A stretch of DNA of 64,000 nt from Bdellovibrionales bacterium (GTDB lineage: Bacteria; Bdellovibrionota; Bdellovibrionia; Bdellovibrionales; UBA1609). This document shows, piece after piece, positions 1,551-14,450 of the stretch. Numbering within the stretch: position 1 is the first letter of the stretch; every line of letters starts with the position of its first letter. The notes under the pieces were generated by a model. The model had not been told where the DNA came from. It saw only the letters and a list, made by a program, of their open reading frames with translations, and did no database searches. Made by a program: the position numbers and the translations under genes. The stretch spans positions 576,394 through 640,393 of the forward strand of contig CBDBIB010000003.1 in NCBI GenBank assembly GCA_965205945.1. Reading direction: 5' to 3'.

Positions 1551-1973
1551 GTGAGAGAAGAAAATAACTTTGAGTTAGCAGCGAAAATACTTTTTTTTGG
1601 TACTCTTGAGGAACATTTTTCTATTGAAGCAGCTAAAAAAATTATCAAAGCTGAAAATAAAAAACTTCTTTTAGAGGCCATTCATAAACTTCTTTCACGT
1701 AGAAAAGATAAAGGGGTTACAAGGGTACATCTTACTGACATTGTATTTGTATTTCCCATAGGTGTGGATCTGAGTTATTGGAGAGAGTTTAAAATAAATT
1801 GTCAAAAAGATGTATTTTGGGCTATTTTATATAAATGGATTGGTGGAGTTTCAGATCAAAATCTATGTGAGGTGCTTCAAATTTCAAAAGGAAGTCTTTA
1901 TTCTCGTTATAATCAAGGTTTAAGTAGTTTAGGTAAGCTGTTGGTTAATAGTCAGATTACATTAGGTATTTAA
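1551..1973 (+). CDS. Hypothetical protein with C-terminal sigma-70 region-4-like HTH
   Basis: GVSDQNLCEVLQISKGSLYSRYNQGLSSL resembles the ECF sigma r4 pattern G.s..eiA..l.is.gtv.sR...gl..L. Confidence 0.55.
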   Translation: MREENNFELAAKILFFGTLEEHFSIEAAKKIIKAENKKLLLEAIHKLLSRRKDKGVTRVHLTDIVFVFPIGVDLSYWREFKINCQKDVFWAILYKWIGGVSDQNLCEVLQISKGSLYSRYNQGLSSLGKLLVNSQITLGI

Positions 1974-1975
1974 TT

Positions 1976-2338
1976 ATGAGCATGAATGATAAACCGTTGG
2001 TACAAAAAAAAATCTTTTCCTTATTTTTTTATAAAAGCAAATTGTATGAGTTTTCACAAAAGAAACTGTTTAAAACGGATCATCTAGCAATGAAGCAAAT
2101 GTCTGAAAAAATCTCTGAAGCAAAATATGAAATAGGAGGAGTGCTTCTTTCTTTAGAGTATTTGAGCAAGCTTAATGAAGTGTCATTAGAAATTAAAAAT
2201 AAAGACCATAATAGCTTAGAAAGAAAATCATCTTTATATAAAACATCAATTGTTTTATTTTTTATAGTACTAACGATTATTTTTTCTGTTTCAGGATATT
2301 ACATAGTCAGTATATTTTTTCAAGGGGATTTAAACTGA
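1976..2338 (+). CDS. Hypothetical single-pass membrane protein
   Basis: 120-aa ORF starting 2 nt after the upstream stop, with a C-terminal hydrophobic segment. Confidence 0.6.
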   Translation: MSMNDKPLVQKKIFSLFFYKSKLYEFSQKKLFKTDHLAMKQMSEKISEAKYEIGGVLLSLEYLSKLNEVSLEIKNKDHNSLERKSSLYKTSIVLFFIVLTIIFSVSGYYIVSIFFQGDLN

Positions 2339-2349
2339 ACAAATATTCT

Positions 2350-4029
2350 TTGAAGTCTTTTGCGTTTTTATGGATGTCGCTTTTTATAGTTTCATTTCTA
2401 GGTTTTTTATATATTATACTTAATCTTTTTTTTTCTGAACACTTAACCAGATCAAGCTTAAAAGATTTAAAATATATGGCTCATGTTGCAAAGCTAACAT
2501 TGTCAAAAGAACAAGAGAAGATGAAAACTTCGTTGGCTTTGCATGTAAGCTCTGAAGAATTTGTAAATCGTTTGTCTCAACGCGCTTTTAAGAAAGTAAA
2601 TAAATTTATTCAAAATTGGAAACAACTTTTAAATATAGATAATATCTGGCTTTATAATAGTAAAGGAGAGCTTCTAGAGCTTAAGACCGGGTTAGTGTCT
2701 CAGAACAGTGTTGGTCTTTTAAAAGAGAGTATGAGAAAGCTAGATTTGGGCTATGATCAAACAAGGTATGTGGCCACTAAAGATGGGTTACTGGTTTCTG
2801 TACGAAGAAAAATTATAGATCATAATTATCTTTCTCAAGGATATTTAGTAGAGGAGAAGAAAATACCATATAAAGCATTTTTAAAAGTTGATGTGGATAG
2901 TGATTTGATTGTAATGTCCTCTAAGGGCATAGTTTTTACTACAAAAAATGTTGAAATAGTTAAGAAATTTTCAAAAAAAGTATTTGCCAAAGGAGCAGGG
3001 GCGTTTGAGCTTTCATTAGAGGGGAAAACTTTTGATGTGTCTAGACTGGATTTAGCACCGGGTATAACGTTTTTCTTAGCAAAAAAGAATTTAAAAAAAA
3101 TAGTTCTTAATAGTTTTTACAAAAAATATTTGGTTTATTTTGGATTGTTGATAGTGTTTTTGATACTAGGTTTTTATTTTTCGTATTATAGACAGGTATT
3201 TCGTCCATTAAAGCAAATTAGTGAGTTTATTGTACGTGATGGAGGAAAGTTTAAAGTTGAAACCTCAATTCATGAGATAAACCTTATTGGAAAAAAACTA
3301 GAGGAAAGAATTTTTGAACTTAGTGGGGATGTTGAAAGAAGTAAACGTGGTAGAGTAAGTGATATGTCTAGACTTGTTGCTAGCGTTGCACATGAGCTTA
3401 ATAATTTTCTTTCATATTTGGGAGGCAATCTTGAGTATTTGCAAAGTGAATTAAATGAAACGAAAAAGATAGATATAGAGGAATTTAAAGCGGCTGTTTT
3501 GTCTGCTCAATCAGGTTACGAGCATATTAAAAAAATTGTTTCTGATTTAAGGGTATTTTCTTCTAAAAGAGATTTGTTGATTTCTTGGTATGATGTAGTG
3601 ATTTTAAAAAATAAAATCCAAAAAGAATTTGATAGTGTGAAGTTAAGTTTTCTAGAAGATTTACATACTTATGAGGTAAAAATAGATTTAGATAGATCAT
3701 TTCAAATTATTAAAAATCTTATTATTAATGCAGAGCAGGCGTATCAAGAGAGGATAATAAATAAGAAAGTGTTAGTTTCTTTTTATTTGGATAAGGGTGG
3801 ATTTGTAATCTCTGTTAAGGATTGGGCCGGAGGTTTTTCAAAAGAAATAAGAAATAAGATTTTTGAGCCTTTTTATACAACTAAGAAGAACATTGGAGGC
3901 GCTGGTTTAGGTCTTTCTCTCTCGCGTAATTTAGCAGAAGAGATGAATTCAGACTTATTTTTAAAAGAAACTAGTGCTGATGGAACAGTATTTTGTTTTA
4001 AATTGAAACACTTTAGAATTAAAGTGTGA
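2350..4029 (+). CDS. Membrane sensor histidine kinase (orphan)
   Basis: Two TM segments; H-box SVAHELNN, N-box NLIINA, D-box DWAGG, F-box IFEPFYTTK, G-box GAGLGLS. Confidence 0.92.
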   Translation: MKSFAFLWMSLFIVSFLGFLYIILNLFFSEHLTRSSLKDLKYMAHVAKLTLSKEQEKMKTSLALHVSSEEFVNRLSQRAFKKVNKFIQNWKQLLNIDNIWLYNSKGELLELKTGLVSQNSVGLLKESMRKLDLGYDQTRYVATKDGLLVSVRRKIIDHNYLSQGYLVEEKKIPYKAFLKVDVDSDLIVMSSKGIVFTTKNVEIVKKFSKKVFAKGAGAFELSLEGKTFDVSRLDLAPGITFFLAKKNLKKIVLNSFYKKYLVYFGLLIVFLILGFYFSYYRQVFRPLKQISEFIVRDGGKFKVETSIHEINLIGKKLEERIFELSGDVERSKRGRVSDMSRLVASVAHELNNFLSYLGGNLEYLQSELNETKKIDIEEFKAAVLSAQSGYEHIKKIVSDLRVFSSKRDLLISWYDVVILKNKIQKEFDSVKLSFLEDLHTYEVKIDLDRSFQIIKNLIINAEQAYQERIINKKVLVSFYLDKGGFVISVKDWAGGFSKEIRNKIFEPFYTTKKNIGGAGLGLSLSRNLAEEMNSDLFLKETSADGTVFCFKLKHFRIKV

Positions 4030-4041
4030 ACTCCGATAAGG

Positions 4042-4554
4042 ATGGCAGTGGCCTTAAATTCTGGCGTAAAAGACGTCATATTTATTATTATTTTTTCAGC
4101 ACTAATATTTTTTGGTGCATTTTTCCTATTCTCTTCTTTAGCGAAAACAAAGGTTAATAAACAGATTTCTGTACGATCTTTAGAAGAAAAGATGAATCAT
4201 AAGGTAAATGAAAGAATTCAAGTGCTACAAGCAAAAAATAAAATTTTTAAGAGCCAACTTGTTAAGACTGAGGGTGTAGGCAGGGATGAAGTTTTTGAAG
4301 AGAATTTTTCAAATACCAAATCAAAATATGAATTAGATGTTTTTCAGGGTCAGGGCTCTCAAGTTTTAGAGATTTTACCACAAAATGCATTTGAAAAAGT
4401 TCAAGCCCTTTTAGACCTTGAAGACTTAAAGGCTCTTGAAAAAAAAGAACTTCTTAAAGAGTATAAAAAGCAAATTATTCAAAGAGCTTTTAAGCAGGGG
4501 TGGGCCATTAAACTTAATGATGACTTAGAGGTGACTTCTGTAAAAAAACGATAA
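4042..4554 (+). CDS. Hypothetical N-terminally anchored protein
   Basis: 170-aa ORF with an N-terminal TM helix and a helical C-terminus. Confidence 0.65.
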   Translation: MAVALNSGVKDVIFIIIFSALIFFGAFFLFSSLAKTKVNKQISVRSLEEKMNHKVNERIQVLQAKNKIFKSQLVKTEGVGRDEVFEENFSNTKSKYELDVFQGQGSQVLEILPQNAFEKVQALLDLEDLKALEKKELLKEYKKQIIQRAFKQGWAIKLNDDLEVTSVKKR

Positions 4555-4645
4555 AGTATTATTGTGACACGAATTCGAACTTTTTAAATCTGCTGTAACA
4601 TTCTATTTTTGTGGGTTTTTGAATATGAATTGATGGTTTAAAAGG

Positions 4646-6140
4646 CTGACTTTTACCCACAAATCATAAGTTATTACCTGTTTTAATATCATTAAATTTT
4701 ATCATCGCCCTCCACAGAACTTGTTGGCCTGGAGGTGGGTCAGAGTTCCTTTCTAAATAACCTCCTAGTCTTGCAAACGATTTTACAAATTTTGCCAAGC
4801 TATCATTTGCTCCTAATAACCTGCCTGACTGCTCTTCTAATTTTGATAACAAAACTTGTTCCTCTTTTGTAAAACAGTGATCTGCATTTACTTCGCAATC
4901 AACTCTAGAAATCCTTGAAATCCAAAATATTCGCCAAGCTAAAACACTCCTAAACGCTACATACTTTTTGATCCTCTCTAAACTCCTTAAACGACTTTTC
5001 TCTACACTAAAACCTGATTTTAACGTCTTAAAATACACTTTTATATTCCAACGAAGTTTATACCAGTTCACTTTCTCTATAGCCTCTTCAAAATTTGTTA
5101 TTGGGATATTTGTTAAGAGTTTCTAATCAACTTGATCCTCTCGCTTAGGGCCATCTTCTTTTGCAGATACAACATAGACCTCAACGGGGGGATAATCTTT
5201 ACTCCTATGTGGAGAAGGCAGGACTGTAACTTTATAGAAGCGAATCTTTACTTTCGCAGTTCTTGCCTCTCTTTTATGAGTCTTAGGCAGATTGAGATTG
5301 TAACTGCCTACAGGAGCTGTTTTCGGGATATTATCATAAATCTTTATTTTCTTCCTTGATGTACACCTATCATGAACTCCACGAATTAAAAAGTTTGTAC
5401 CAAAACTAATACAATTAAAAAATAACTCATACATATCCCCGCACCTCGGTCACAAATGTGCACTTGCTTTTCAGCTTGAAATTCAGCAACAACTAAGTTC
5501 ACCCCCCTCAATCCAACTAAAACTTTCTTTTTCTTGAACAGGGACTCTGGTAAAGTTCTTTCCAGCTTTTCTTATTTTTCTTCTGTTTTTAGAATCACGA
5601 GACCACATTTTTTGATTCACTAAACCTAAAGGAACTCCCGTTTTACTTAATAGAGCAAGAGATGAATGTATCATTAAACCTGGTGTATCGTACTCTTTAC
5701 CATTTCGATGATCTATGTAGGACCCTAAGTATCCTGCGTTGCCTTAAAAGACTTTATTTTTTGAGAAAGTTATTTCACTTAAGTCATGTAAAATTAAAGA
5801 CATATCATTTTCATCTAGAGCATTCATTCTGTTGAGCGTTTGTTTTATGTGAGGTTTGAGAATTTCTTCAGCCTGAAAGTTGTCATTATCAAAGAATCTA
5901 TAAGCCGCCTTAGAAGATTTCCAATCTTGGCATGAAAAAGAGATAGACTCACCATTATTTTTACTCAAAGCCTCAGCAAGGTATTCAAGTCTGTGGTTAA
6001 GTCGTTTATCACCAAGTTGAGCATTTTTAAATTCATTTTTAATATTCACAAAAACTCCAATTCTTAAAATCAATTTGGAGTTTAATATTATTTTGATTTT
6101 AAAATTATAAAACCTAGACCTATTTGTGGGTAAAAGTCAG
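4646..6140 (-). mobile_element. IS4-family, IS50/Tn5-like insertion sequence with perfect 19-bp TIRs
   Basis: CTGACTTTTACCCACAAAT at 4646-4664 and its exact reverse complement at 6122-6140; 1,495 bp; encloses transposase fragments. Confidence 0.92.
4664..6073 (-). pseudogene. Tn5-like (IS4 family) transposase broken into at least 4 fragments
   Basis: Motifs LGDKRLNHR, KAAYRFFDN, WYKLRWNI..YFKTLKSG and LGGYLERNSDPPPG spread over different frames (5744-6073, 5483-5674, 5123-5434, 4664-5071). Confidence 0.9.
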
Positions 6141-6228: not shown

Positions 6229-9200
6229 TTAATAACCAGGGCTACAACGTGTAAAATTAGGTTTTTCAGCACGAGTCCAAGAAGTTAAAGTTCGGGATGA
6301 AAAACTGCCGCAATAGACAACGTTAGAAACATTCCATAAACTGATGTCTTGATCAAAAGAAGCTGCATCATAAAACATAAAGCCCATACTAGTAACCTTA
6401 GAAGTGTCCCAGTTAGAGGTGTCAGGGTTAGCTAAATCTGCATCATAAAACATAGAGCTCATACTAGTAACCTTAGAAGTGTCCCAGTCAGAGGTGTCAG
6501 GGTTAGCTAAAGCTGCACTATTAAACATAGAGTTCATAGCAGTAACCTTAGAAGTGTCCCAGTCAGAGGTGTCAGGGTTAGCTAAAGCTGCACTATTAAA
6601 CATAGAGTTCATACTAGTAACCTTAGAAGTGTCCCAGTTAGAGGTGTCAGGGTTAGCTAAAGCTGCACTATTAAACATATAGCTCATATCAGTAACCTTA
6701 GAAGTGTCCCAGTTAGAGGTGTCAGGGTTAGCTAAATCTGCATTATAAAACATCCCGCCCATATTAGTAACCTTAGAGGTGTCCCAGTTAGAGGTGTCAG
6801 GGTTAGCTAAAGCTGTATTAGAAAACATAGACCTCATATCAGTAACCTTAGAAGTGTCCCAGTTAGAGGTGTCAGGGTTAGCTAAAGCTGTATTAGAAAA
6901 CATAGACCTCATATCAGTAACCTTAGAAGTGTCCCAGTCAGAGGTGTCAGGGTTAGCTAAAGCTGCATTAGAAAACATCTTATACATACTAGTAACCTTA
7001 GAAGTGTCCCAGTCAGAGGTGTCAGGGTTAGCTAAATCTGCATTATAAAACATAGAGCTCATACTAGTAACCTTAGAAGTGTCCCAGTCAGAGGTGTCAG
7101 GGTTAGCTAAATCTGCATTATAAAACATAGAGCTCATACTAGTAACCTTAGAAGTGTCCCAGTTAGAGGTGTCAGGGTTAGCTAAAGCTGCACTTAAAAA
7201 CATCCGGCTCATACTAGTAACCTTAGAAGTGTCCCAGTCAGAGGTGTCAGGGTTAGCTAAAGCTGCATAAGAAAACATATAGCCCATACTAGTAACCTTA
7301 GAAGTGTCCCAGTTAGAGGTGTCAGGGTTAGCTAAAGCTGCATAAGAAAACATATAGCCCATACTAGTAACCTTAGAAGTGTCCCAGTTAGAGGTGTCAG
7401 GGTTAGCTAAAGCTGCATAAGAAAACATAGAGTTCATACTAGTAACATGTCTAGTTGAGCCACCATTAACAAGAGTTAAGTTATCTGCTTTATAAAACAT
7501 ATAACTAAAACTTTCCCACCCTGTGTCTCCTAATTCTGTAACCTCAATTATTTGCTCGCTATCACGAAAGTTAAGATATGGGCAGCGCCCAGTGATTTTA
7601 ACTATATAAGTCCCTGAAGATGAATAAGTATGATTTTTATCTAAATCACTTGATGAAGTAACAACTCCCGAGGTTCCATCCCCCCAATTAACCATAAAGT
7701 TATATGTATAAGAAGAATTTAACCTAAGATTTAAATTTAAATCACTACCATAAATTCTAAATTTAGCTGTAAAAGGGGTTCCTAAATTTTGTATTTCAGT
7801 GCTTAAACTAACTACATCAGACAGGTTTCCGGCTGCATCTTGTGCAACACCAGAGGCGATTGTAATTTGAATATTTCCGGTTTCATCACTGCAGTCTGAA
7901 ATCCTAATACTTGGATTAATAGTTGTTCCATTTGTTACTAAAACTGTGCAACCTGTAGTAGTTCCAGTAAGGCTGACATTGCTCTTTTCTAGGTTTATAC
8001 TACTAAAGTCTTGGCTTACAGTTATGGGAAAGTCTATAGAATTTGAACTGCTTATTATATGGCTTCCAATACTGACAATAGGGGGTTTAGTATCTTTTAT
8101 TAGATTTAAAACACCTGAAGTTTTAGAATTTCCAGCAATGTTTGTGATACTAGCAGTTAGTGAAAGTGGACCATCACTTAGGCTTGAAAAATCAATATCA
8201 CCACTAAAGCTTTTATTAGAACAAGTAATAAAGCTTGTACCATGTGAAAATGTGATAAGCTCACCATCTTCAGAACATGTTCCTAAAACCCTAAAACCCC
8301 CCTCATTAATAGAATTAATGTAAGATCCACTTAAAGAGTTTGTAATAGAAATTGTTGGATCATTGTTACTTAAAAAAGTTTTCCACACTACCCCATCGCA
8401 AAACTCCAGTTTTTTTCCTAAAGAATTATACCTTAAAGTACCCTCAGTTAAACTGTCACAAGGGGTTGTAACTGTTCCAACTTTTTTTAAAAATGTAACA
8501 GTAGATGTACTAATAGATCCTGGAGTAGAAATGCTTCCAGAGACAGAAACATCACCATTATTGTTAATAGTGATTCCTTCATCATCGCCGTCTCCACTTA
8601 AATAATTTTGGTTAAGATTTATATTTAATCGAGCCCTGCCATCTCCCATATTATCAGCACTGCTTGGTAAGTTTATAAGCCGACTTCCATCAACAGCAGG
8701 CAGTCTTAAAGAGCTATCAAGCTTAATAAGCTGATTGCTCCCTGTGCCAACATCTAATCTAGCTGTGCTAATGGTTCCTGAAGTGATCTTTTCTCCATTT
8801 AAATCTGGTATATCAGATTTTAATAAACTTAAACCCTCAACCACTCTTCCTTTAACATCAACTCTAACTTTTGGGTACGTCCCTTGGGTTACACCCGTTG
8901 GTATAAGACTAGGGTTCGGGTAGGTTCCTGTAAGATCCCCTTGAGCCTGGCTTCCTAAAAGACTTGTGTCTGTCACACATGACCATAAATAAATAGGACC
9001 TTCACTCATTTGAAGTTTTTCATTGCTTTCACAATTAGGCACTCCACCAGCATCCATTGCGTTGCCTGCATTTTTTCCTAAAGAAGCTTTTAAATAACCG
9101 TTTAAAAAGTTTGAATGTGTTATTTTTTTAAGACCACTTTGAGAAACATCATACATTAAAACACTGTCTAAAGAATCAGCCGTAGTTTTTTCTGTAGTTT

Positions 9201-12200
9201 TGTTAATGTCTACACTTAAACTTCTATTAGTTGATAAATCTCCACCTCCACTTAATCCACTGTTTAAAGCCGTTCTAATAGTTCTAGTTATTGGAGCTTT
9301 TCTAGATTCAAGTTCATTAAGTGCACCTTCTACATCTGTAGCCTGAATGTTTCCAAATGGAGTGTAGGTCACCGTGTTTGCCGCTAGACTTGCTAAACTC
9401 CAACCTTCAGACACATCCTTACAATTTGCTCCTCTTTCATCACAAATTTGTGTTATTCTTGCTGTTCCAGCAACGTCTAATAAAGCCTCAGGACTAGCCT
9501 TACCAACTCCAACCCTTCCACTAGCATCAATAATAATTCCCTCATTATCACCGTCTCCACTTAAATAATTTTGGTTAAGATTTATATTTAATCGAGCTAT
9601 ACTATCTCCCATATTATCAGCACTGCTTGGTAAGTTTATAAGCCGACTTCCATCAACAGCAGGCAGTCTTAAAGAGCTATCAAGCTTAACAAGCTGATTA
9701 CTCCCTGTGCCAACATCTAATCTAGCTGTGCTAATGGTTCCTGAAGTGATCTTTTCTCCATTTAAATCTGGTATATCAGATTTTAATAAACTTAAACCCT
9801 CAACCACTCTTCCTTTAACATCAACTCTAACTTTTGGGTACGTCCCTGGGGTTACACCCGTTGGTGTAAGACTAGGGTTTGGGTAGGTTCCTGTAAGATC
9901 CCCTTGAGCCTGGCTTCCTAAAAGACTTGTGTTTTGATCAACTTCACATGACCAGGAATAAATAGGACCTTCACTCATTTGAAGTTTTTCATTGCTTTCA
10001 CAACTAGGCACTCCACCAGCATCCATTGCGTTGCCTCGACTTTTTCCTAAAGAGGCTTTTAAATAACCGTTTAAAAAGTTTGAATGTGTTATTTTTTTAA
10101 GACCACTTTGAGAAACATCATATATTAAAACACTGTCTAAAGAATCAGCCGTAGTTTTTTCTGTAGTTTTGTTAATGTCTACACTTAAACTTCTATTAGT
10201 TGATAAATCTCCACCTCCACTTAATCCACTGTTTAAAGCCGTTGTAATAGTTCTAGTTATTGGAGCTTTTCTAGATTCAAGTTCATTAAGTGCACCTTCT
10301 ACATCTGTAGCCTGAATGTTTCCAAATGGAGTGTAGGTCACCGTGTTTGCCGCCAGACTTGCTAAACTCCAACCTTCAGACACATCCTTACAATTTGCTC
10401 CTCTTTCATCACAAATTTGTGTTATTCTTGCTGTTCCAGCAACGTCTAATAAAGCCTCAGGACTAGCCTTACCAACTCCAACCCTTCCATTAGCATCAAT
10501 AATAATTCCCTCATTATCACCGTCTCCACTTAAATAATTTTGGTTAAGATTTATATTTAATCGAGCTATACCATCTCCCATATTATCAGCACTGCTTGGT
10601 AAGTTTATAAGCTGACTTCCATCAACAGCAGGCAGTCTTAAAGAGCTATCAAGCTTAACAAGCTGATTGCTCCCTGTGCCAACATCTAATCTAGCTGTGC
10701 TAATGGTTCCTGAAGTGATCTTTTCTCCATTTAAATCTGGTATATCAGATTTTAATAAACTTAAACCCTCAACCACTCTTCCTTTAACATCAACTCTAAC
10801 TTTTGGGTACGTCCCTGGGGTTACACCCGTTGGTATAAGACTAGGGTTCGGGTAGGTTCCTGTAAGATCCCCTTGAGCCTGGCTTCCTAAAAGACTTGTG
10901 TTTTGATCAACTTCACATGACCATAAATAAATAGGACCTTCACTCATTTGAAGTTTTTCATTGCTTTCACAACTAGGCACTCCACCAGCATCCATTGCGT
11001 TGCCTCGACTTTTTCCTAAAGAGGCTTTTAAATAACCGTTTAAAAAGTTTGAATGTGTTATTTTTTTAAGACCACTTTGAGAAACATCATACATTAAAAC
11101 ACTGTCTAAAGAATCAGCCGTAGTTTTTTCTGTAGTTTTGTTAATGTCTACACTTAAACTTCTATCAGTTGATAAATCTCCGCCTCCACTTAATCCACTG
11201 TTTAAAGCCGTTCTAATAGTTCTAGTTATTGGAGCTTTTCTAGATTCAAGTTCATTAAGTGCACCTTCTACATCTGTAGCCTGAATGTTTCCAAATGGAG
11301 TGTAGGTCACCGTGTTTGCCGCCAGACTTGCTAAACTCCAACCTTCAGACACATCCTTACAATTTGCTCCTCTTTCATCACAAATTTGTGTTATTCTTGC
11401 TGTTCCAGCAACGTCTAATAAAGCCTCAGGACTAGCCTTACCAACTCCAACCCTTCCACTAGCATCAATAATAATTCCCTCATTATCACCGTCTCCACTT
11501 AAATAATTTTGGTTAAGATTTATATTTAATCGAGCTACGCTATCTCCCATATTATCAGCACTACTTGGTAAGTTTATAAGCCGACTTCCATCAACAGCAG
11601 GCAGTCTTAAAGAGCTATCAAGCTTAATAAGCTGATTGCTCCCTGTGCCAACATCTAATCTAGCTGTGCTAATGGTTCCTGAAGTGATCTTTTCTCCATT
11701 TAAATCTGGTATATCAGATTTTAATAAACTTAAACCCTCAACCACTCTTCCTTTAACATCAACTCTAACTTTTGGGTACGCCCCTTGGGTTACACCCGTT
11801 GGTATAAGACTAGGGTTTGGGTAGGTTCCTGTAAGATCCCCTTGAGCCTGGCTTCCTAAAAGACTTGTGTCTGTGTCTGTATCAATATCAGCCACGCAAG
11901 AATAGCTTATTATAGCACCAGGGTTTCGTTGAATCTTTTCCCCACTAGTACACACAGGAAGAGTGTCCACTTGCATGAGCTGTCCTAAACCACTTCCTAT
12001 ATCTGCTTCTAAACCCCTTGGCGTAATTTTTAAACCACTTCCTACTTTTACTTTTAATTTATTTATATTAAACTCTAAACCCCCAGAAGAATCTAAATCT
12101 AAATCTATGTTTCCACTGTTGTTGTATAAACCCCTACCAAGGTTGATGCTTATTGTTGGGTTGCTACCACCTGAAGAGGTTAAAGGAGCATTGACTAAAA

Positions 12201-13470
12201 CACTTGATGCACTACTTAAGGTGCTTAAAACTTCTAAGCTAACACCATTCCAATACTTAAGCGCTCCAGAGTCACTATTGTACCAAGTAGCCCCAGCATT
12301 GCTCATGTTCATAGATCCTAAAAGACTAACTTCTTCTAAATTCGTATAAGAACCTAAGGTCATGGTACTTCCTGGGTTTTGCATAATATGACTTGTGTTT
12401 AGAATCTGATTATTATTAAAGTTAAGGTCACCTAATAAAACCCCTCCTGTAAGAGGAAGTTTTGTATTGTCAGTTCCTGTGGGAACCACTGAGCTTGGTA
12501 GAATTCCACTTGTGATTTTATTTGCATGAATACCGCTTGCAAGATGACTGTTTAAAACACCCCCTGGTGCAATTAAAATTGTGCCACTGTTTGTAATGGT
12601 TCCACCACTTAAGCCACTTCCTGCTGTAATACTGGTTACAGTTCCACTACCTTTACCAACAACAGTGGCTGCTGATCCATTGTAGTACATGATTTGATTA
12701 TTTGTAGAGTTATACCAAATATCTCCTGCCTGAGAATTAGGTGGTGGATGAGAGCTTGAAAAACTCGGTAAAGAGCTAGCTCCACTGATGCTTAATGGGG
12801 AGTATTGATTAGAGCTGCCATTAATTAAAGCCATAAGCTCCCTTTGATTGGCATCATTATCAAACACGGTCTCTAAATTGCTTTGAGTAACACCACGACT
12901 TACTTGAATAAAATCATTAACAGCTTTTCCACCAAGTTTGCCGGCATACTGAGCATAGGGCACACTGTGAATTATATGATCATTTGTTAAAGTAAGAGGG
13001 CCGCTGCCATGATCAAAAGTTACTCTAAGCCTTCTTGTATCGTTTAAGGTTGGAGTGTATGAAGACCCAAAGGCACAACTAAGACTTTTATTGTTTAAAA
13101 AAGAATTGTCTAAAGCTTTAGATAAATTTGTTAAGCCTCCATTTCCTGTGTTTATTCCAGACCCAACGTTTAAGTTAAAAACTCCCTTTGATCCTATCAT
13201 ATTAAGATTAAAACTTTCTTCGTAAAGAAGACAATGATCCATGGAGGATAAAACTTGAACAAGAAAGCTGACATTATTTTCTTCTAAAGCGTCTCCATTG
13301 GGTTTTACAATTTGACCTTGAAAAACAAAAGAACTTGGGGTGGCTAGAGAATGGGGAGTTAATAGTAAAATTGTGAAGAAAGTTAGAGCTTTCACACCTA
13401 TTTCTATGAAATTTTTTAATAAGTCATATACTCTATACATATTGTATATTTCGGATAAAAAGCTTAACAA
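6229..13470 (-). CDS. Giant fibre-like surface adhesin: Bdellovibrio-type fibre N-terminus, repeated stalk, Ig/PKD domains and a DUF285/BspA-like repeat tip. True start probably GTG 13395 or ATG 13440.
   Basis: Signal peptide VKALTFFTILLLTPHSLA; N-terminal FQGQIVKPNG..LE.NNVSF...CLLYEE...GVFNLNVGSG; fibre motifs GDIWYNS and C....EGTLRYN....EFCDG..W; PKD-like VNWGDGT..HTY...GTY; C-terminal WDTSKVTxMxxMF repeats. Confidence 0.9.
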   Translation of the reverse strand: MLSFLSEIYNMYRVYDLLKNFIEIGVKALTFFTILLLTPHSLATPSSFVFQGQIVKPNGDALEENNVSFLVQVLSSMDHCLLYEESFNLNMIGSKGVFNLNVGSGINTGNGGLTNLSKALDNSFLNNKSLSCAFGSSYTPTLNDTRRLRVTFDHGSGPLTLTNDHIIHSVPYAQYAGKLGGKAVNDFIQVSRGVTQSNLETVFDNDANQRELMALINGSSNQYSPLSISGASSLPSFSSSHPPPNSQAGDIWYNSTNNQIMYYNGSAATVVGKGSGTVTSITAGSGLSGGTITNSGTILIAPGGVLNSHLASGIHANKITSGILPSSVVPTGTDNTKLPLTGGVLLGDLNFNNNQILNTSHIMQNPGSTMTLGSYTNLEEVSLLGSMNMSNAGATWYNSDSGALKYWNGVSLEVLSTLSSASSVLVNAPLTSSGGSNPTISINLGRGLYNNSGNIDLDLDSSGGLEFNINKLKVKVGSGLKITPRGLEADIGSGLGQLMQVDTLPVCTSGEKIQRNPGAIISYSCVADIDTDTDTSLLGSQAQGDLTGTYPNPSLIPTGVTQGAYPKVRVDVKGRVVEGLSLLKSDIPDLNGEKITSGTISTARLDVGTGSNQLIKLDSSLRLPAVDGSRLINLPSSADNMGDSVARLNINLNQNYLSGDGDNEGIIIDASGRVGVGKASPEALLDVAGTARITQICDERGANCKDVSEGWSLASLAANTVTYTPFGNIQATDVEGALNELESRKAPITRTIRTALNSGLSGGGDLSTDRSLSVDINKTTEKTTADSLDSVLMYDVSQSGLKKITHSNFLNGYLKASLGKSRGNAMDAGGVPSCESNEKLQMSEGPIYLWSCEVDQNTSLLGSQAQGDLTGTYPNPSLIPTGVTPGTYPKVRVDVKGRVVEGLSLLKSDIPDLNGEKITSGTISTARLDVGTGSNQLVKLDSSLRLPAVDGSQLINLPSSADNMGDGIARLNINLNQNYLSGDGDNEGIIIDANGRVGVGKASPEALLDVAGTARITQICDERGANCKDVSEGWSLASLAANTVTYTPFGNIQATDVEGALNELESRKAPITRTITTALNSGLSGGGDLSTNRSLSVDINKTTEKTTADSLDSVLIYDVSQSGLKKITHSNFLNGYLKASLGKSRGNAMDAGGVPSCESNEKLQMSEGPIYSWSCEVDQNTSLLGSQAQGDLTGTYPNPSLTPTGVTPGTYPKVRVDVKGRVVEGLSLLKSDIPDLNGEKITSGTISTARLDVGTGSNQLVKLDSSLRLPAVDGSRLINLPSSADNMGDSIARLNINLNQNYLSGDGDNEGIIIDASGRVGVGKASPEALLDVAGTARITQICDERGANCKDVSEGWSLASLAANTVTYTPFGNIQATDVEGALNELESRKAPITRTIRTALNSGLSGGGDLSTNRSLSVDINKTTEKTTADSLDSVLMYDVSQSGLKKITHSNFLNGYLKASLGKNAGNAMDAGGVPNCESNEKLQMSEGPIYLWSCVTDTSLLGSQAQGDLTGTYPNPSLIPTGVTQGTYPKVRVDVKGRVVEGLSLLKSDIPDLNGEKITSGTISTARLDVGTGSNQLIKLDSSLRLPAVDGSRLINLPSSADNMGDGRARLNINLNQNYLSGDGDDEGITINNNGDVSVSGSISTPGSISTSTVTFLKKVGTVTTPCDSLTEGTLRYNSLGKKLEFCDGVVWKTFLSNNDPTISITNSLSGSYINSINEGGFRVLGTCSEDGELITFSHGTSFITCSNKSFSGDIDFSSLSDGPLSLTASITNIAGNSKTSGVLNLIKDTKPPIVSIGSHIISSSNSIDFPITVSQDFSSINLEKSNVSLTGTTTGCTVLVTNGTTINPSIRISDCSDETGNIQITIASGVAQDAAGNLSDVVSLSTEIQNLGTPFTAKFRIYGSDLNLNLRLNSSYTYNFMVNWGDGTSGVVTSSSDLDKNHTYSSSGTYIVKITGRCPYLNFRDSEQIIEVTELGDTGWESFSYMFYKADNLTLVNGGSTRHVTSMNSMFSYAALANPDTSNWDTSKVTSMGYMFSYAALANPDTSNWDTSKVTSMGYMFSYAALANPDTSDWDTSKVTSMSRMFLSAALANPDTSNWDTSKVTSMSSMFYNADLANPDTSDWDTSKVTSMSSMFYNADLANPDTSDWDTSKVTSMYKMFSNAALANPDTSDWDTSKVTDMRSMFSNTALANPDTSNWDTSKVTDMRSMFSNTALANPDTSNWDTSKVTNMGGMFYNADLANPDTSNWDTSKVTDMSYMFNSAALANPDTSNWDTSKVTSMNSMFNSAALANPDTSDWDTSKVTAMNSMFNSAALANPDTSDWDTSKVTSMSSMFYDADLANPDTSNWDTSKVTSMGFMFYDAASFDQDISLWNVSNVVYCGSFSSRTLTSWTRAEKPNFTRCSPGY
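6361..7446 (-). repeat. 75-bp (25-aa) tandem coding repeat, DUF285/BspA-like: 14 full constant blocks and 15 variable cassettes
   Basis: Constant block AGTAACCTTAGAAGTGTCCCAGT(T/C)AGAGGTGTCAGGGTTAGCTAA recurs every 75 bp and translates as LANPDTS(N/D)WDTSKVT. Confidence 0.97.
8578..11870 (-). repeat. ~3.4 near-identical tandem copies of a 969-bp (323-aa) stalk module (one interval is 963 bp)
   Basis: Identical shadow ORFs at 9374, 10343 and 11312 (period 969); TSLLGSQAQGDLTGTYPNPSL occurs four times in the protein. Confidence 0.97.
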
Positions 13471-14148
13471 TTAGAGGGAATTAAATAGTTTTTTAGCTCT
13501 AATTCTACATTTTTATTTTCATTTAAAATCTGTGCTTTTACAAAATATGCCGATAAGGGGGATTATGTTACTACGTCTATTTTAAAATTATATTTAAGTT
13601 TAAAAGTATTTAATTATAAAAGTTTAGACTTTATTTTTTTAAAATTATTATTTTCAATAAAATTTTTATTATTAAAAATAAGGACTGCTTTAGAATTTAC
13701 TTTAAAAATATTTAATATTTAGCGCTCTTTTTTTAAAGCTTAGATTTAAATATCTTTATTTATCATAGCTGTTATTTTAACCAACATCTAAGTTTAAAAG
13801 TTATTAAGATACAGCATATGTATTATATAAAATTAAATAAATATTTAAAGCGATATTCTTTAAGGTTTTTTTAATATTTATTTGTATAGAGATATTATTT
13901 AAACAAGAAAATCTTGTTAATTAAACGTAACTATTTTGCAACATTTTTATGTCACAAAGAAATTTACACTTAAGCACCATAGTTAAAATCAGCAGGTCAA
14001 ATCAAAAATAATGTGGTTTTAAGCAGAAATAGTAACATAATCCCCCTTATCGGCATGTTTTGTAAAAGCACAGATTTTAAATGAAAATAAAAATGTAGAA
14101 TTAGAGCTAAAAAACTATTTAATTTCCTCTAATTGTTAAGCTTTTTAT
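13455..14148. repeat. 119-bp inverted repeat (13455-13573 / 14030-14148) around a 456-bp AT-rich spacer
   Basis: By eye the arms are reverse complements with 2 mismatches. Each contains GCCGATAAGGGGGATTATG pointing inward. Confidence 0.95.
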
Positions 14149-14450
14149 TTAAAAAATACAAATCCCTGACATCTTTGACTAGGATATTTTTAAGGTTACT
14201 GATATAAGATTTATGTTTTATAAGAGAGTCTATAAAACAAATTATTTAACTGCTTAACAGTAAACTAGGATTGAGTATCTTTAGTATGTTTTCTTTTTTA
14301 AATTTATTTTAGCATGGATAGGAAGTGGTTTTTAAACTTTTGGTTTAAGTTAAACACTTATGTGTAACAACGCCTAAAACTTCTAGTTTTATTAAAAACT
14401 AATTTTTTATTAATTCTAGATCATTATAAATTTTTATTGTAATAAAAAGA

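Follow-up and report, generated by a model that had tools for sequence, protein, structure and literature searches.

DUF285 units with a near-identical DNA scaffold and five hypervariable codons at the tips of nine Bdellovibrionales surface proteins: a pattern of concerted evolution with a putative role in prey recognition

The stretch of DNA analyzed here (hereafter, the window) comprises 64,000 nucleotides of a Bdellovibrionales bacterium genome (assembly GCA_965205945.1, contig CBDBIB010000003.1, positions 576,394 to 640,393; C3:576394-640393 in the contig labels used below) and carries, on the minus strand at 6229-13470, a 7.2-kb fibre gene with an array of 75-nt DUF285 units in its 3' part, i.e., at the C-terminal end of the protein. 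Within each unit a 45-nt scaffold is nearly identical at the DNA level and five codons are hypervariable, and the same scaffold recurs in nine genes of this genome. We propose that gene conversion and unequal crossing-over, combined with diversifying selection on one stripe of a predicted solenoid, would have produced this pattern and that the tips would function in prey recognition; for this reading, with mechanism and function taken together, we estimate a probability of about 0.7.

Tandem Repeats Finder (TRF) reported a single array at 6360-7446 with a period of 75 nt, 14.5 copies, 92% matches and no indels, and the 2413-aa open reading frame (ORF; length counted from a TTG start, as in the ORF list) matched the Pfam DUF285 profile (PF03382) with E 6.7e-110 and 361.9 bits (cut-off 25). 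Cut in register, the array consists of 14 tandem 75-nt DUF285 units (6361-7410, minus strand), each formed by the 45-nt scaffold, which encodes LANPDTS[N/D]WDTSKVT, and a 30-nt cassette, which encodes xMxxMFxxA[A/D] and contains the hypervariable codons 16, 18, 19, 22 and 23. The scaffolds of these 14 units differ by AAC or GAC at codon 8 and by one synonymous change, ACT>ACC, and by nothing else; an earlier sequence-only reading of the window had described an invariant scaffold with a single synonymous change near 6778, and this was reproduced, with the change at exactly 6778. A leading variable cassette, SMNSMFSYAA (7411-7440, minus strand), closes the N-terminal cap and is the 15th cassette of the list given in that reading, all 15 entries of which were recovered one for one on re-cutting, with adjacent duplicates and recombined half-cassettes among them. 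The array is preceded in the protein by the pre-array part of the tip module (7441-7800, minus strand), i.e., a solenoid N-cap and a weak PKD-like match (E 7e-4, below cut-off), which is also present in the two short lipoprotein paralogues described below, and it is followed by a C-terminal cap and tail, SFDQDIS.WNVSNV..C.SFS..TLTSWTRAEKPNFTRCSPGY (6232-6360, minus strand), with a few variable positions that are in register with the cassette positions. Proportions of non-synonymous (pN) and synonymous (pS) differences were estimated by the Nei-Gojobori method. In the window gene the five hypervariable codons showed a pN of 0.43, as compared to a pS of 0.016 and a pN of 0 for the 15 fixed codons, a pattern far beyond chance.

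The source genome (G000; 1.87 Mb in 5 contigs, 32.5% G+C, 97% complete) contains 119 copies of the 45-nt scaffold, 105 of them exact and 14 with one mismatch, and a control search with the reversed pattern gave no matches in this genome. These copies make up nine arrays of 31, 16, 12, 5, 10, 6, 14, 11 and 14 units, with a spacing of always exactly 75 nt, and all nine arrays are located inside intact ORFs of up to 2838 aa. Seven of the genes encode giant paralogues of 2178-2838 aa (one of these is truncated by the end of its contig) and the other two encode short paralogues (909 and 585 aa) that carry a lipoprotein-type signal (lipobox LVGC); the tip module, consisting of pre-array cap, array and C-terminal cap, forms the end of all nine proteins. 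Summed from the ORF lengths, the nine genes cover approx. 51 kb, or 2.7% of the genome, in which the PF03382 profile matches 47 stretches. Compared to the window gene, the 6-kb bodies of the giant genes are 98.9-99.75% identical, with a body pS of 0.006-0.018 and a pN of 0.0015-0.009 in the four of the seven giant genes that are of equal length. In the caps (6232-6360 and 7441-7800), differences between paralogues are mostly non-synonymous (e.g., between the window gene and the paralogue C3_401044, at G000:C3:400243-402000, pN is 0.06-0.09 and pS is 0-0.05), and the variation of the C-terminal cap, V[LV][DYE]C[GEN]SFS[GSY][RQ], again falls on positions in register with those of the cassettes. 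The only DUF285 pieces outside the nine genes are two decayed relics, both with stops: one (C1:322311-322442) corresponds to the C-terminal cap, and the other (C1:644939-645079) to the N-cap and first unit, with drift having left 6 mismatches in the 45 nt of its scaffold. These two pieces illustrate the state of the repeat where it is not part of a homogenised gene. The search for the scaffold therefore yielded paralogues and no silent donor cassettes in the genome beyond the nine full ORFs and these two relics, and the VLR-like assembly from silent donors contained in the sequence-only reading (VLR, variable lymphocyte receptor) finds no support as a mechanism, as all nine loci are complete ORFs.

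Per-codon analysis of all 119 units found that 18 of the 25 codons encode a constant amino acid (15 codons plus Met17, Met20 and Phe21), with just two singleton synonymous changes among them. Codons 16, 18, 19, 22 and 23 are represented by 6, 8, 11, 5 and 5 codon types, respectively, with more than one base changed (two or three) in many cases; two alleles near 50:50 are present at each of codons 8 (N/D) and 25 (A/D), and codons 13, 15 and 24 show minor variants. As many as 83 distinct 75-mers occur among the 119 units. Nei-Gojobori comparisons over all unit pairs gave a pS of 0.0037 and a pN of 0 for the fixed codons and a pN of 0.39 for the hypervariable codons. The 595 residues at the five positions comprise Ser (35.6%), Asn (24.5%), Tyr (12.1%), Asp (10.1%), Gly (5.2%) and Arg (2.5%), i.e., 90% are Y, S, N, G, D or R, the same six residues that had been named from the window array as predominant. 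Synonymous variants of the hypervariable codons are rare (GGC/GGG, AGG/AGA) and the third base is almost always kept, which speaks for selection acting on amino-acid replacements and against a local increase in mutation rate.

Unit number (5-31) as well as unit order differ among the paralogues, even though the 6-kb bodies are approx. 99% identical. The longest exact DNA stretch common to any two arrays spans 0.8-3.7 units, even for a pair of genes with bodies that differ at 15 of 6030 nt. Among the 68 cassette types, 42 are singletons and 14 occur in at least two genes. When linkage was measured as mutual information with permutation controls, sites within one cassette were linked (P = 0.0002), and no linkage was detected between codon 8 and the cassettes 24 nt away on its upstream (P = 0.25) or downstream (P = 0.83) side or between neighboring cassettes across a scaffold (P = 0.63). 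The Asp-8 allele (GAC; e.g., at 7239 in unit 3) is found in 53 of the 119 units, in eight of the nine arrays and beside all kinds of cassettes, and in none of the 35 units with a full cassette in the sister genome described below; it would thus have spread by many short exchanges, or it recurs. Neighboring cassettes were identical in 16 of 110 cases, as compared to 5.5 expected after shuffling within arrays and 1.6 after shuffling genome-wide, and cassettes at lag 2 were identical in 9 of 101 cases. Identical cassette pairs were seven times more frequent within arrays (5.4%) than between arrays (0.78%). The picture suggested by these comparisons is one of frequent duplication and loss of one or two units within an array and of rarer transfer between arrays. 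With linkage lost across the scaffold, adjacent duplicates in excess and cassette types common to several genes, the cassette shuffling that had been postulated for the window array is supported for the nine genes.

Arrays of this type were found in one other genome. DUF285 was present in 10 of 41 related genomes, and period-75 arrays with at least 5 copies and at least 91% matches were limited, among these 41 relatives, to five genes of a single same-genus genome (G003); the DUF285 units of the other relatives are ordinary, with 67-90% matches and mostly 2-3 copies. A 32-nt scaffold core was likewise present in 2 of 109 family genomes and, in the species-representative collection, only in the sister metagenome-assembled genome G003, and it gave no matches in JGI metagenome contigs. 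In G003 the scaffold core occurs 36 times, in five genes, and a full cassette accompanies 35 of these copies. The G003 scaffold, AANPDTSNWDTSNVT, differs from that of the window genome by four nucleotides (GCAGCA as compared to TTAGCT, and AAC as compared to AAG; 41 of 45 nt identical), and its hypervariable codons occupy the same codon positions. No full cassette is common to the two species (67 in G000 and 23 in G003), and the preferred codons differ, with Ser at positions 16 and 23 encoded by AGT in one genome and by TCT in the other. The caps flanking the array show a between-species pS of 0.26-0.34, as compared to a pS of 0.004 for units within G000. Since units are far more alike within than between species, across all paralogues, this pattern is, at the sequence level, the classical signature of concerted evolution. 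The scaffold homogenisation that had been proposed from the window alone consequently extends to 119 near-identical scaffolds in nine genes and to a sister species with its own fixed scaffold version. Within G000, the contrast is striking for C3_401044, the paralogue that diverges most, when all sites are counted: its scaffolds differ at 3 of 495 nt, as compared to flanks that are 5-7% different.

An AlphaFold2 model of residues 1930-2413, built with 48 homologues, had a mean pLDDT of 91.3 (94-98 in the repeat blocks) and a pTM of 0.88, with a single beta-bridge in each unit, at position 16. The top Foldseek matches in the PDB were all leucine-rich repeat (LRR) solenoids, i.e., TLR3 (E 9e-5), TLR13, LGR4, SHOC2 and the Bacteroides LRR protein 4fs7 (TMt 0.33); the low TM-scores are as expected because the curvature differs. 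A PDB sequence search gave no match with the whole protein and nothing below E 0.079 with the DUF285 profile. The prediction for the tip is thus an LRR-like solenoid with one turn per 25-residue unit. The unit pattern xMxxMFxxAxxxNxDxSxWDxSxVT is also the consensus of 49 aligned family members and, across 1076 units of 118 proteins, positions 18, 19, 22 and 23 were the most variable of all, whereas positions 1, 4, 6 and 13 are variable in the family and frozen in the units of this genome. Among 112 homologues with at least 5 units, a scaffold identity of at least 0.98 was found only in G000 and G003 proteins (next value 0.89, median 0.69). The five variable positions fall within one 8-residue stretch and are interleaved with the invariant Met17, Met20 and Phe21. 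As equal positions stack in a regular solenoid, as all five lie within 8 residues and as the family-wide variability agrees, the variable positions would face outward and be stacked into one stripe along the solenoid.

The remainder of the protein resembles fibres of Bdellovibrio bacteriovorus. The N-terminal 520 aa match B. bacteriovorus proteins annotated as "tail fiber domain-containing" (PF13884) with E values of 6e-19 to 1e-18 and 38% identity over approx. 30% of the query; judging from their S74 domain and length, these appear to be the MAT proteins of Caulton et al. 2024. A Pfam profile search found no PF13884 (S74) match in the window protein, which would therefore belong to a non-S74 class. 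Two same-genus proteins (P0122 and P0123) have an N-terminus 72% identical to that of the window protein and PF07603 tips instead of DUF285, and tips are thus swapped within the genus; the DUF285 tip module is itself found on carriers other than giant fibres, namely on the two lipoproteins. Overall, the window protein fits, by sequence, the MAT fibre family with its conserved N-terminus and exchangeable C-terminal tip, and its N-terminal homology to B. bacteriovorus MAT-type tail-fibre-domain proteins makes a part for the tip in prey recognition plausible.

The fibre gene probably starts at an in-frame ATG (MYRVYDLL...) located 30 nt downstream of the TTG, at approx. 13440; the paralogue C2_110033 has the same start. 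Directly upstream of this ATG lies a segment (13442-14161) with 145-nt inverted repeats at its two ends (13442-13586 and 14017-14161), which are 92% complementary. Copies of this segment, with 85-98% identity to that of the window, precede two sister genes in the same orientation and three in the inverted orientation, which fits an invertible expression switch.

Taking these observations together, we propose that homologous recombination between the periodic scaffolds would keep the scaffold homogeneous and would move, duplicate and delete the 30-nt cassettes, by unequal crossing-over within an array and by short-patch gene conversion between arrays. Heteroduplexes that extend over several units, with patchwise repair, may explain the loss of linkage. 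Diversifying selection would retain and renew amino-acid variety at positions 16, 18, 19, 22 and 23, the stripe would be a Ser/Asn/Tyr/Asp-rich ligand-binding surface at the distal end of the fibre, and nine versions behind segments in either orientation may supply a variable repertoire for the surfaces of prey (or other) cells. A more far-reaching version of this proposal, which we consider speculative and rather unlikely, is that the nine tips are a heritable and rewritable repertoire, in which five-residue "words" from small position-specific alphabets are stacked 5 to 31 high to read a periodic prey-surface polymer (e.g., glycan repeats), are rewritten by short-patch conversion and are displayed via the invertible segments. 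If this were true, the repertoire would be a bacterial predator's counterpart of an antibody or VLR library, with the modular logic of transcription activator-like (TAL) effectors applied to non-DNA ligands.

Several observations weigh against the proposal of recombination, diversifying selection and prey recognition. The whole family is young or has been homogenised over 6 kb, so that the scaffold is only 2-5 times tighter than its background; the feature that stands out over this family background is the 20- to 100-fold excess of change in the five codons. A DNA-level constraint on the scaffold between the two species was considered and rejected, as one synonymous change was seen and approx. 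3.4 were expected, and this conservation is not beyond chance (P ~0.15, hand arithmetic). Array-specific homogenisation of C3_401044 is only suggestive at synonymous sites (1 change seen as compared to approx. 4-6 expected; P ~0.02-0.08, hand arithmetic), because the differences in its flanks are mostly non-synonymous (flank pS 0.05 and 0). Three sequencing runs contain the window (shares 0.56, 0.55 and 0.37; one study, two samples), all as short-read contigs that mix the nine paralogues and that break into pieces of approx. 61-75 nt inside the array; bins left uncovered in run X3 are not taken as a result, and the searches of runs and contig collections turned up no second strain. The exposure of the five positions and their location on a single face are suggested by solenoid geometry and family variability, prey binding is putative, and the lifestyle of the organism is known only from the labels of its relatives.

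Among the alternatives, the one that shares the same evolutionary regime assigns the variation to evasion, e.g., of the predator's phages, of prey defences or of grazers' receptors, similar to antigenic variation. The proteins are surface fibres and lipoproteins (LVGC in two paralogues), and several paralogues behind segments in either orientation represent the usual design for phase and antigenic variation. If the variation served evasion, however, one would expect every exposed site to vary, and here it is limited to one 8-residue stretch per turn, with the exposed, family-variable positions 1, 4, 6 and 13 frozen; moreover, the variable positions are rich in S, N, Y and D, a composition typical of binding surfaces. 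With regard to published systems, contingency loci do precede mycoplasma PARCEL/DUF285 genes (Roske et al. 2010, PMC2996958, in its available text), but a distal C-terminal tip matches the binding end of MAT-type fibres as far as these are described in the available text of Caulton et al. 2024. We thus regard evasion as unlikely. A dedicated diversifier that writes the cassettes, either by targeted hypermutation or by site-specific exchange at the scaffold (as in diversity-generating retroelements [DGRs], shufflons or VLRs), could account for the extreme contrast between five codons and the rest, for the loss of linkage within 24 nt and for the recombinase-type inverted-repeat segments that adjoin the genes. 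We consider it improbable, as no match to the reverse transcriptase profile PF00078 was found in the 97%-complete genome (control genomes gave matches) and no silent donor cassettes exist apart from two decayed relics, and as a site-specific recombinase acting on direct repeats would give deletions and not exchange. The many invariant A's of the scaffold and the third positions of the variable codons, which are almost always kept, speak against local hypermutation. A DGR in particular was rejected on account of the missing reverse transcriptase, the invariant scaffold A's, changes at all four bases and the lack of a template repeat. The unit DNA is also without notable secondary structure: two units folded as DNA gave -9.5 kcal/mol (z +1.04), and 173 of 200 shuffled sequences folded as well, which led us to reject exchange driven by hairpins or palindromes (the "palindromic" aspect of PARCEL).

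Homogenisation need not be ongoing if the arrays were recently amplified from one unit and their exposed positions then drifted or adapted once, and both the approx. 99% identity of the whole family over 6 kb and the many adjacent duplicates are in line with this scenario. It would require up to 5 changes in 6 nt at the five codons while approx. 10 synonymous scaffold sites per unit stay fixed, and it would have to explain why the derived Asp-8 stands beside all kinds of cassettes in eight of nine arrays. Furthermore, the multi-unit design recurs in a sister species at a pS of approx. 0.3, where the scaffold is different at 4 fixed positions, and the array is consequently old, yet its units are identical within each species; we therefore judge recent amplification to be very improbable. 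Repeats that were homogenised or mis-joined by assembly or polishing would give similar arrays, and 75-nt repeats are indeed hard to assemble; the short-read contigs fall into approx. 61-75-nt pieces there. An artefact of this kind is scarcely credible for nine genes with intact frames of up to 2838 aa and for a second, independently assembled genome with the same design; in addition, short-read pieces match single cassettes and their scaffold flanks without differences (e.g., 6941-7013, runs X1 and X2), although these runs may be the source data and hence not independent. Our preferred reading thus remains recombination among scaffolds combined with diversifying selection on the stripe.

Systems with a comparable regime are known. 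Variation in lamprey VLRs and in DGRs is focused on exposed positions of an LRR fold (VLR) or of a C-terminal ligand-binding fold (DGR) and generates a recognition repertoire. The genes described here differ from VLR, pilS and vls systems in that there is no incomplete expression gene with silent partial donors, and from DGRs in that there is no reverse transcriptase, template repeat or A-specific pattern. Xanthomonas TAL effectors, which are injected, consist of helical repeats of 33-35 residues, each repeat reading one DNA base, with all variation relevant to specificity placed in the repeat-variable di-residues. In both cases bacterial repeats are near-identical, few fixed positions vary and arrays differ in unit number and order; unlike TAL effectors, the tips described here have 25-residue solenoid turns with five variable positions, are extracellular and have a putative ligand, and we claim no code. 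The term "TALE-like" used in the sequence-only reading therefore holds as an analogy of evolutionary regime and does not extend beyond that analogy.

Closer parallels in regime are found in fungal NOD-like receptors (NLRs). According to the available text of Dyrka et al. 2014 (PMC4986451; citing Paoletti 2007 and Chevanne 2010), WD, ANK and TPR repeats with high internal conservation (HIC), such as those of the nwd/hnwd genes of Podospora, are near-identical and variable in number, evolve in concert within and between paralogues and, in each repeat, are under diversifying selection at approx. four positions lining the interaction surface, with repeat-induced point mutation (RIP) as a suggested mutator. 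For the repeats described here, identity is likewise above the 85% used for HIC-type repeats (92% at the DNA level by TRF, and 0.98-1.00 at scaffold positions), and concerted evolution occurs both within and between paralogues. Near-identical units, concerted evolution, variation in number and few variable positions are thus common to both systems as described there, by analogy and not by homology: fungal NLRs are intracellular eukaryotic immune receptors with WD, ANK or TPR folds, whereas the tips studied here are bacterial, extracellular and of DUF285/LRR-like fold, with DNA identity over 45 of 75 nt. PARCEL/DUF285 proteins, as described in the available text of Roske et al. 2010, are surface lipoproteins or membrane proteins with a variable number of 25-residue units, in which hydrophobic positions are conserved and hydrophilic positions variable, and some are located behind phase-variable loci. 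Near-identical units are presented in that survey as an infrequent exception ascribed to recent duplication, whereas here a scaffold identity of at least 0.98 is reached in proteins of two genomes. One of the MAT fibres of B. bacteriovorus, which combine a conserved N-terminal part with exchangeable C-terminal tips, binds glycans on the surface of prey (Caulton et al. 2024, PMC10769870, in its available text). The tips of these fibres, as described there, are compact trimeric beta-sandwich or S74-processed domains, whereas the window protein, a fibre twice as long, ends in a solenoid of repeats that varies in length and diversifies at the level of single codons; the available text of Caulton et al. 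does not mention DUF285, a solenoid or leucine-rich repeats.

The evolutionary regime, DUF285/PARCEL repeats and MAT fibres are thus each already known. In the available texts of the literature searched, neither a Bdellovibrio fibre with a DUF285 tip nor a DUF285 scaffold that is identical at the DNA level and combined with hypervariable codons was described. As far as these searches went, the combination of a DUF285 solenoid as fibre tip in a Bdellovibrio-like bacterium, a DNA-identical scaffold in 119 units of nine genes with five hypervariable codons per unit, and orientation-variable upstream segments is new. With regard to how Bdellovibrio-type predators recognize prey of a broad and changing range, the MAT paper shows fixed, swapped tip domains; the genes described here may represent another solution, in which a single tip scaffold is re-used nine times, variation is placed on five positions per turn and arrays are reshuffled. 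The regime of conserved repeats with hypervariable sites, as in TAL effectors and fungal NLRs, would thereby be extended to bacterial extracellular adhesins. The tips resemble a library of binding surfaces made by nature, on which the range of targets that the cell is able to seize may depend, and nine natural tips with 68 cassette types are a ready panel for binding studies and a natural template for engineered LRR-type binders.

The body of the window gene also contains approx. 3.4 tandem repeats of approx. 969 nt (approx. 323 aa) at 8555-11870 (minus strand), which are approx. 97% identical to each other and give self-matches at offsets of 969, 1938 and 2897 nt (gene positions 1601-3942, 2570-4905 and 3539-4916); the gene is thus also internally repetitive on a coarser scale than that of the array. 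An 89-aa ORF antisense to the array, at 6779-7048 (plus strand) and itself repetitive, is most likely a by-product of the repeat and no gene. Just downstream of the fibre gene, three ORF pieces at 4664-6073 (minus strand) represent a broken Tn5-like (IS4 family) transposase (PF14706, E 2e-20; PF02281, E 7e-6). Copies of this insertion sequence are located beside fibre genes in both species and are 97-99% identical between the species, as compared to approx. 88% for the flanks, which suggests that the element was recently exchanged between the two.

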